Assembly: GCA_016926555.1 (NCBI GenBank)
Contig: JAFGOI010000002.1
Location: forward strand, 1-58,268
Length of the DNA: 58,268 bases
Direction of reading: 5' to 3'
Source of the DNA: Patescibacteria group bacterium
Lineage (GTDB): Bacteria; Patescibacteriota; WWE3; UBA101185; UBA10185
Every line of letters begins with the position of its first letter. The first letter of the stretch is position 1. This document shows positions 48,511 through 49,287 of the stretch, one piece after another. Position numbers and translations under genes: made by a program. Under the pieces are notes generated by a model. It did not search any database. It saw only the letters and a program-made list of their open reading frames with translations, and was not told the origin of the DNA.

Positions 48511-49287
48511 TTACAGTATTAATACTAAATAAGCAATTAGTAGTCCCGCTGAAATAATCAAGAAAGTAAGTAGAAAATTAAAAAACACTAACCGCCTTAT
48601 AGATCCTCTTGCCAACGGATTTCTACCAATTGCCTCTATACTCTGATTTGATATTCTACCGAATGTTCTAAACCCAATCAGGAAACTGGCTATCACTATC
48701 AAAGCAGCTAACAGATACCTAAAGGATGTTAAAGGCGAGAGGTATGCCGCATCAAAACCTGATTTCAAAAATTCAAATATGTTACCCCTTAAACCCGCAG
48801 AAGAAATATAATTGGTTTTAATATCTATATATACAGGTATTGTATCTCCATCTCCCATATCCTCTAAGGCTACCCCTAACACATGACCATTTGATAACGC
48901 TTTTACACCGTAACCAGGCTTACCTGAACTTGTTATATAATCCCCCTTCTTTATTTCTCCGTTTTCATTAGTAACCTTAACATATGCTTCCCCAGAGGAT
49001 AGCACTAATTTCATATCTTCTGTATTAACTACTTCTTCAAACGCCGCTATCGGATGTTCAACTATCACTCCAAACATTGTGAGATCATAAGGCTGTTCAC
49101 TTAAGTTATACTCTCCATTTCTGTAACTTACTATATGACCACCCGCCGCTTCCTTATTTTCTATTTTTACTGAAAATGCAATCTCATTATATGAGTAAGT
49201 ACTTCTCCCATAACACAATACAACTACTGCTAGTACTGTCTTCAGCACATATTTACTGTTTTCCCAAACTGTCTTTCCTGTCCGCAT
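48511..49287 (-). CDS. Exported beta-domain fused to a subunit-c-like helical hairpin lacking the ion-binding carboxylate
   Basis: Occupies the atpE position. Signal-like N-terminus; [24 protein letters not shown]....VLGVALED domain; TM1[11 protein letters not shown]2. Confidence 0.6.

Follow-up and report, generated by a model that had tools for sequence, protein, structure and literature searches.

An operon for an F1-type ATPase in bacteria of the class WWE3 opens with a gene that fuses two parts: a membrane hairpin that, on sequence evidence, is a homolog of F-type subunit c with its ion-binding carboxylate lost, and an outward-facing domain of the tailspike-chaperone type found on phage fibers. 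The operon has no subunit a and it stands back to back with the gene for a giant fiber protein. The enzyme is probably used for something other than making ATP. Our account concerns one stretch of DNA of 58,268 nucleotides, which we call the window (Patescibacteria group bacterium, GenBank assembly GCA_016926555.1, contig JAFGOI010000002.1), together with the relatives of its fusion gene. The genome is an 872-kb draft in 13 contigs, 92.3% complete.

The accessible portion of Kantor et al. (2013, PMC3812714) describes a WWE3 operon whose membrane subunits, 'a, b and c', lack homology, adds that its putative c turns up repeatedly in OP11/WWE3, and leaves the function open. A preprint (10.64898/2026.10.01.756066) deals with unusual neighborhoods of CPR beta genes; the features of the fusion are undescribed in its accessible text, and its supplementary figures may show the operon. 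Reviews go on listing the enzyme among the F-type ATP synthases. In the literature covered, with subscription papers and some supplements outside our scope, we met with no description of a lost carboxylate, of the outer domain, of the absence of subunit a or of the pairing with a giant gene.

A c-type hairpin joined to a tailspike-chaperone domain

The fusion gene is an open reading frame of 258 aa with an ATG start, on the minus strand at 48511-49287, and all the protein stretches quoted in an earlier note on this DNA are recovered in it. Its parts and the genes around it are listed in Table 1. In homologs the N-terminal stretch closes with small residues just ahead of the outer domain. The domain motifs quoted earlier fall in residues 67-142, and the hairpin is made up of TM1 (residues 191-206), a loop (216-226) and TM2 (233-258).

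Table 1. Positions in the window of the parts of the fusion protein, the genes of its operon and the divergent giant gene
Feature	Positions	Strand	Basis or remark
Short F1 epsilon, 102 aa, beta-sandwich only	43321..43629	-	PF02823 over residues 27-98
F1 beta	43610..45046	-	TIGR01039, 474.6 bits against a cut-off of 462.85
F1 gamma	44997..45863	-	PF00231, E 7.8e-19
F1 alpha	45867..47387	-	PF00006, E 1.6e-66
Delta/OSCP-like protein, 166 aa	47359..47859	-	no Pfam match for the window copy
b-like peripheral-stalk protein, 212 aa, one N-terminal TM helix and a long coiled coil	47863..48501	-	weak family matches
Fusion, residues 185-258: subunit-c-like helical hairpin (TM1, loop, TM2)	48514..48735	-	HMM and hhalign
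Fusion, Phe242 codon	48562..48564	-	aligned with the ion-binding Glu of canonical c (HMMER, hhalign)
Fusion, residues 221-224: GRNP loop	48616..48627	-	counterpart of the R-Q/N-P loop in c subunits
Fusion, residues 166-184: low-confidence linker and short helix (170-179)	48736..48792	-	pLDDT 54-64
Fusion, residues 33-165: extracytoplasmic beta domain, phi29 gp12 D4 / Peptidase_G2 (IMC) type	48793..49191	-	without the [AV]D.AE motif
Fusion, residues 1-32: basic N terminus and hydrophobic helix	49192..49287	-	candidate signal peptide or N-terminal anchor; AF2 helix 6-26
Shared intergenic region, 434 bp, non-coding	49288..49721	.	between the operon and the divergent giant gene
Giant fiber protein, >2849 aa, running off the contig end	49722..58268	+	two MerR-type HTH, one TM helix, long repeats

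The earlier note had proposed a hairpin like that of subunit c, devoid of Glu and Asp, and this is borne out. Set alignment to alignment against the canonical c of the same class, the hairpin matches over 69 columns with a probability of 96.2% (hhalign, E 2.4e-9). A hairpin HMM picks out the small canonical c ORF in seven of the eight canonical atp loci of the class and, in the reverse search, an HMM built from the class's canonical c has the fusion ORF as its sole match in the genome (E 6.7e-4). The seven top matches of the family profile in the PDB are all c subunits (E 0.0012-0.088). With general family models the similarity is weak: two NCBIfam models for subunit c match at E 0.005 and 0.037, with a score of 16.8 bits where the cut-off is 122, a Pfam scan of the window protein has no match to PF00137 (ATP-synt_C), and four of 35 relatives match PF00137, all below the cut-off and with a best E of 7.2e-4.

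At about 70-80 residues the hairpin has the length of its c-type counterpart. All 200 family members (191 distinct C termini) have the GRNP loop, and in every one TM2 ends exactly 34 residues past it. The TM2 core, by contrast with canonical c, is without Asp or Glu in 199 of the 200, and none of the 191 distinct sequences has either residue in the TM1 core. The column equivalent to the ion-binding Glu holds Phe in 85 of the 200 sequences, Ile in 43, Leu in 19, Ala and Val in 18 each, Gly in 12, Met in three, and Ser and Thr in one each. At the loop, canonical c of the class has EAIGRNPE and the fusion EAIGRNPL; at the ion site the sequences are AFAEA and LLTF respectively, Phe242 occupying the place of the Glu. 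TM1 differs as well, reading GLGAIGPGIGIG in the canonical class c and A..SF..GF..FG in the fusion. The GxGxGxG packing motif has thus given way to a conserved Phe face, and for this reason the oligomer may not resemble a c-ring. Polar residues are conserved in TM2, Asn/His at +13 and Thr at +17. The loop is basic (766 Lys and Arg against 211 Asp and Glu over the 191 sequences), in keeping with a loop that faces the cytoplasm while the domain and the two ends of the hairpin lie outside, the topology that had been suggested earlier.

Compared with F-type subunit c, then, the fusion has the same two-helix hairpin length, an R-N-P loop identical to that of canonical class c (EAIGRNP), the same place in the operon ahead of b and the same topology, both ends outside. 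It lacks the ion-binding Glu/Asp, the GxGxGxG of TM1 and a subunit a to work with, it falls below the Pfam threshold, and it adds an outer domain of 150 aa and a signal sequence.

The outer domain shows the D4 fold, a tandem beta-tulip. Its best Foldseek matches are phage capsid decoration proteins, the base of the phi29 head fiber and a C-terminal fragment of phi29 gp12 (E 4e-5 to 9e-4). According to the accessible part of Stone et al., D4 of gp12 consists of two beta-tulips and is an autochaperone for trimerization. Pfam returns only XM1_gp53 for the window protein (E 0.12) and PHROGs weak head-scaffold and decoration matches; among 35 family members Pfam matches XM1_gp53 in six, Phage_cement_2 in three and Peptidase_G2 (PF11962) in a single one (E 0.0092, under the curated threshold), all below cut-off. 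The fusion-domain HMM also matches large ORFs adjoining the operon in nine of 80 loci (E 1e-7 to 5e-25), a count limited to the fetched DNA, off whose end most neighbors run. Four of ten giant-protein segments exceed the Peptidase_G2 cut-off of 25 (29.8-38.5 bits), the fusion-domain HMM matches the Peptidase_G2-type segments of giant proteins at E 1e-17 to 8e-23, and in a joint alignment the two share the core GD.ITSS..PG.G.KA....G...G.ALE. Judged by this alignment and these scores, the outer domain is a homolog of the Peptidase_G2 domains in the giant neighbors; together with the Foldseek match to gp12, this agrees with the earlier assignment to the chaperone type of phage appendages (Peptidase_G2/IMC).

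The two settings differ in what precedes the domain. A motif [AV]D[FILYW]AE lies just before it in eight of eight giant proteins and in none of ten fusions; we take this to be the autocleavage site of the Peptidase_G2-type family. In the fusion the domain directly follows the signal sequence, not a fiber or spike. It is N-terminal on a membrane protein, unlike D4 of phi29 gp12 (PDB 3gqh/3suc), which is C-terminal on a fiber. Nor is there any capsid context of the sort in which the phage decoration and cement proteins are found (XM1 gp53, HFTV1, BB1, TW1; models XM1_gp53_minor_capsid and Phage_cement_2), and the matches to these stay below cut-offs.

The family is large, well past anything that chance would give, and nearly anonymous. 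We found 457 homologs of similar length at E<=1e-3, nearly all without a name, a few being called 'F0F1 subunit c' by one source; in the ESM Atlas the family is confined to clusters without names. A scan of 185,579 species genomes, one per species, confirmed the fusion pattern at 416 loci, and the best 80 of these come from WWE3, Woesebacteria, Levybacteria, Amesbacteria and unnamed Patescibacteria, some with odd automatic labels. An alignment of 35 relatives (35-69% identical to the window protein) has 19 invariant columns, G-R-N-P among them. Of the 134 genomes in the class to which the window belongs, 102 have a match at E<=1e-5, and we count these as 89 full fusions and 13 domain-only or weak matches. 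The family occurs in more than one class, and an even sample of the phylum has matches in 41 of 401 genomes at E<=1e-25, so it is confined to part of the phylum. In one genome the fusion gene is in two pieces with in-frame stops, one TGA and one TAA (G080:C21:5662-6398), either a broken copy or an assembly error. The window's own genome has a second, full-length copy (C9:1622-2386, +; locus L022), 38% identical to the first and with GRNP kept; it has no atp neighbor and is followed by a desulfoferrodoxin gene.

An F1 operon and its missing ion path

The fusion gene heads a tightly packed row on the minus strand: fusion, b-like, delta-like, alpha, gamma, beta and epsilon. The earlier note had allowed that the hairpin might resemble no c subunit and that the gene might usually lie away from the atp genes. 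As well as the homology to c, what we find is alpha downstream on the same strand in 67 of the 71 loci with at least 3.5 kb of downstream DNA, and alpha, gamma, beta and epsilon all downstream in 58 of the 61 with at least 7.5 kb. A b-like gene follows on the same strand in 64 of the 71 (BLAST). The four loci without alpha (L042, L060, L077 and L083) have a PEGA-domain protein, a sortase, the fusion and a b-like protein of 197-212 aa, with no F1 genes in the 6-10 kb that follow. At two others (L093:2711-4941 and L102:3913-5970) alpha comes directly after the fusion with no b-like or delta-like gene between, and the stator is therefore not universal in the operon. In genome G274 the fusion lies 58 kb away from the F1 genes.

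Alpha falls below the NCBIfam equivalog cut-offs for atpA (393.7 against 484.45 and 426.2 against 554), and FliI/SctN family models return scores for both alpha and beta. The catalytic motifs are kept, with the Arg-finger motif of alpha in 66 of 67 orthologs and Walker A and GER..E of beta each in 63 of 63, and from these motifs the F1 of the fusion operon is apparently competent catalytically. The true start of the window's beta is probably the Met at residue 18. Four of six delta-like orthologs tested exceed the Pfam OSCP cut-off. Epsilon is without a C-terminal extension: its orthologs measure 79-123 aa, against 129-137 aa, by ORF coordinates, in the canonical operons of the class.

These F1 subunits form a line of their own. 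Identity between the window's beta and other variant betas is 47-63%, and against the canonical betas found in the same class and phylum it is 40-47%; a canonical beta taken from the window's family, by comparison, has 61-69% identity with its canonical counterparts throughout the phylum. In an alpha-rooted tree the 33 variant betas fall in one clade (SH-aLRT 99). The tree comes from a quick search under LG+G4 in which alternate members of the variant set (32 of 63 betas) were joined by the window's own; it drew a long-branch warning at the alpha root and its betas are those of this phylum, without outgroup betas from others.

The path for ions is what the operon lacks. The window's own genome has neither a subunit a, by PF00119 or a class-specific HMM, nor a canonical c. 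Among the 134 genomes of the class, subunit a scores above its cut-off in 16 and canonical c likewise in 17 (the same 16 and G007), the two genes lying side by side in an operon separate from the fusion locus that has its own alpha and beta. Most genomes of the class have one strong alpha/beta pair, and those with a and c mostly two. A co-occurrence table, compiled by hand from three profile searches over these 134 genomes, has fusion and F1 together in 87, the fusion only in two, F1 only in six (three of canonical type, three fragmented assemblies) and neither in 39; among the 87, 74 are without subunit a. The class-specific HMM for a matches all eight canonical loci and none of 80 fusion loci, and no gene for a multi-pass membrane protein was found inside the operon in those 80. 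In another class, genome G365 (closed, 99% complete) has the fusion beside its sole alpha/beta pair and no a.

Two candidates for a substitute were rejected. An extra gene of about 570 aa lies between the fusion and the b-like gene in the Woesebacteria-type loci L084, L085, L086, L092, L095, L096, L101, L103 and L104; its product is soluble, with no TM segment in eight of the nine copies and one predicted segment in L101, and in sequence it looks like a cofactor-independent phosphoglycerate mutase. The extra genes of L106 and L107 encode small soluble proteins.

Ion translocation by F1Fo requires both the carboxylate of c and subunit a. With neither, the complex cannot couple ATP to an ion gradient. 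In WWE3 and the Microgenomates-type lineages, metabolic reconstructions thus include an 'ATP synthase' that has no ion path, for want of subunit a and the c carboxylate, and about a tenth of the phylum-wide sample (the 41 of 401 above) is affected. A complex that neither makes ATP from a gradient nor energizes the membrane means that models of energy metabolism need correcting.

Two known departures from the canonical enzyme invite comparison. N-ATPases, the alternate F1Fo enzymes, are likewise encoded in some genomes by a divergent F-type operon that is additional to the canonical one. They retain subunit a and an ion-binding c, and the NCBIfam alt_F1F0 models score far under cut-off here (384.5 against 750.5 and 407.9 against 752). 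The F1-like systems of mycoplasmas, of the Mycoplasma mobile gliding-motor type (MMOB1660/1670) and MSC_0618/0619 type, are the other (compare PMC8406192 and PMC11864180): F1 alpha/beta is put to non-chemiosmotic use there, with no subunit a. The setting is likewise a small wall-less or reduced bacterium with giant surface proteins. Alpha and beta of the fusion operon do score against the four mycoplasma models, though far under their cut-offs (NF045863, 373.9 against 600; NF045858, 353.7 against 850; NF045936, 278.7 against 520; NF045934, 400.9 against 570), and the fusion operon differs in retaining gamma, epsilon, delta, a b-like stalk and a c-derived membrane protein. We know of no c-like fusion in the mycoplasma systems.

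A giant fiber gene and what the complex may do

Across the shared intergenic region from the operon lies a gene for a giant protein. Its N terminus has MerR/HTH_17-type domains at residues ~19-62 and ~118-140, followed by a membrane helix and kilobases of fiber-like repeats. A regulator tethered to the membrane and joined to a surface fiber is a possible reading of this protein. The 434 bp between the two genes hold only short imperfect repeats and nothing usable as an operator; over 43000-50000 there are 20 promoter-like sites against a shuffled expectation of 24.9. The arrangement recurs. A divergent upstream ORF of at least 500 aa is present in 56 of the 71 loci with at least 1.5 kb of upstream DNA, and reaches at least 1000 aa in 37, most of these ORFs being cut by the end of the fetched DNA. 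In 43 of 80 loci the divergent neighbor has a MerR-type HTH N terminus like that of the window's giant protein, and the paralog on C9 also faces a giant fiber gene (C9:1-1564, -). The C-terminal 1474 aa of such a giant protein, outer domain included, stand at the start of contig C5. A join of this fragment to the window's giant gene was rejected as unproven; the terminal repeats of the C9 giant fragment, an N-terminal one, are 77% identical to the C5 start. Peptidase_G2-like domains also occur in giant ORFs of genomes without the ATPase, for example in seven of family f7 (G018-G023 and G025, domain-only), so such fibers do not need it.

Taken together, these observations suggest the following scheme. 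The fusion would descend from the lineage's own F-type subunit c, having kept the hairpin and the F1-facing GRNP loop, lost the carboxylate and the glycine motif of TM1, and gained at its outward-facing N terminus an interaction domain of the gp12-D4/Peptidase_G2 type. Its present role would be that of membrane subunit in an F1-type ATPase that is separate, monophyletic and without subunit a, a complex that would move neither H+ nor Na+ and so contribute neither chemiosmotic ATP synthesis nor a membrane potential. F1 would hydrolyze ATP, with the gamma-epsilon stalk seated on an oligomer of hairpins; the invariant, F1-facing GRNP loop is our argument that the hairpins still seat it. Motion or torque would cross the membrane to a crown of outer domains, and these may act on or hold the divergently encoded, giant trimerizing fiber, whether in its assembly, tensioning, movement or release. 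The earlier note had read the protein as a rotor ring displaying fiber-binding or folding domains; the homology of both halves and the atp context now support part of that interpretation, while we infer the remainder (the oligomer or ring, the attachment of gamma-epsilon, rotation and contact with the fiber). That ATP hydrolysis moves the hairpin oligomer and its outer domains, with the giant fiber as target, is a proposal on which our judgment is evenly balanced. A bolder version, in which F1 torque passes through a proton-blind, c-derived ring whose outer crown grips the homologous domain of the fiber, and so winds, turns, tensions or releases an extracellular filament, we hold to be improbable. 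Were it true, it would be a case of rotary mechanotransmission to the cell surface, in bacteria without a respiratory chain. The operon is also a natural example of the F1Fo design turned to another purpose with rotor and stator parts retained. Its strict pairing with a giant fiber gene suggests a role, open to test, at the surface of the cell, the place of contact between these episymbionts and their hosts.

Other explanations have to be set against this scheme, and the most conventional is that the operon encodes an ordinary if very divergent F1Fo synthase or ion pump, with a non-carboxylate ion site and a stator channel that has escaped recognition. The order of the operon and the F-type character of all its F1 subunits speak for it, as do the label 'F0F1 subunit c' that some sources give to relatives and the conserved polar positions of TM2 (Asn/His at +13, Thr at +17); the 2013 description, in its accessible portion, leaves the question of ions open. 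Yet such an enzyme would have to do without the carboxylate in TM2 (199 of 200) and TM1 (191 of 191), and without any multi-pass gene in 80 loci or an a in its own genome and in 74 of the 87 genomes of the class with fusion and F1. Where a and c do occur, it is in another operon, complete and provided with a separate alpha and beta, and we regard the conventional explanation as very improbable. We give even less credence, next to none, to the idea of decay, in which the operon is what a reduced genome has left of an ATP synthase and the fusion is a functionless accident. It is true that these genomes are small and reduced, that F1 has been lost altogether in 41 of 134 genomes of the class and that the fusion gene of G080 has in-frame stops. 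Decay fits poorly, though, with a family that reaches beyond a single class and keeps 19 invariant columns at 35-69% identity, with catalytic motifs intact in 63 of 63 betas, and with the joint retention or loss of fusion and F1 (87 with both and 39 with neither, n=134).

A more serious competitor accepts a non-chemiosmotic use and dispenses with rotation. The hairpin would be a mere membrane anchor or docking site, either for a non-rotary ATPase that exports or unfolds the giant protein, much as FliH-FliI-FliJ serves the flagellar export gate, or with the outer domain as a fixed template for fiber assembly. The loss of the TM1 glycine motif is in its favor, and so are the fusion and b-like pairs and the lone paralog that have no adjoining F1 genes, the two loci without b and delta, and the scores of alpha and beta against FliI/SctN families. 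Against it, most loci retain a full gamma and epsilon, delta/OSCP and a b-like stalk, components of importance to a rotary design of stator and rotor; GRNP and the length of the TM2 tail, exactly 34 residues, never vary; and the giant protein has an N-terminal membrane helix of its own, consistent with ordinary Sec insertion. We consider this anchoring role unlikely, while allowing it a real share of the probability.

Neighboring genes and other F1-like genes

Downstream of epsilon (window 40554-43273) come rplA, rplK and nusG on the other strand and a gene for an M50 peptidase. Locus L064, from a complete WWE3 genome, has a similar rplA-rplK-nusG-like order past the operon and then an M50-peptidase-like gene, the sequences having been read by eye. 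Farther off, a 2038-aa bacterial alpha-2-macroglobulin (window 31328-37444, -) adjoins a transglycosylase/transpeptidase with a PBP-C-type end (37284-39521, -); alpha-2-macroglobulin and a bifunctional transglycosylase/transpeptidase are, we presume, a known gene pair. A cluster of four tRNA genes lies at 28730-29669 (+).

Other Patescibacteria encode a third type of beta-like protein, 45-51% identical to canonical beta and in frames of 671-765 aa (G160:C7:59318-60670, G186:C5:48565-49911, G209:C32:5977-7314, G151:C5:15490-16854 and G178:C112:509-1858). As far as sequences go, these genes suggest further non-canonical F1-like systems in the phylum.
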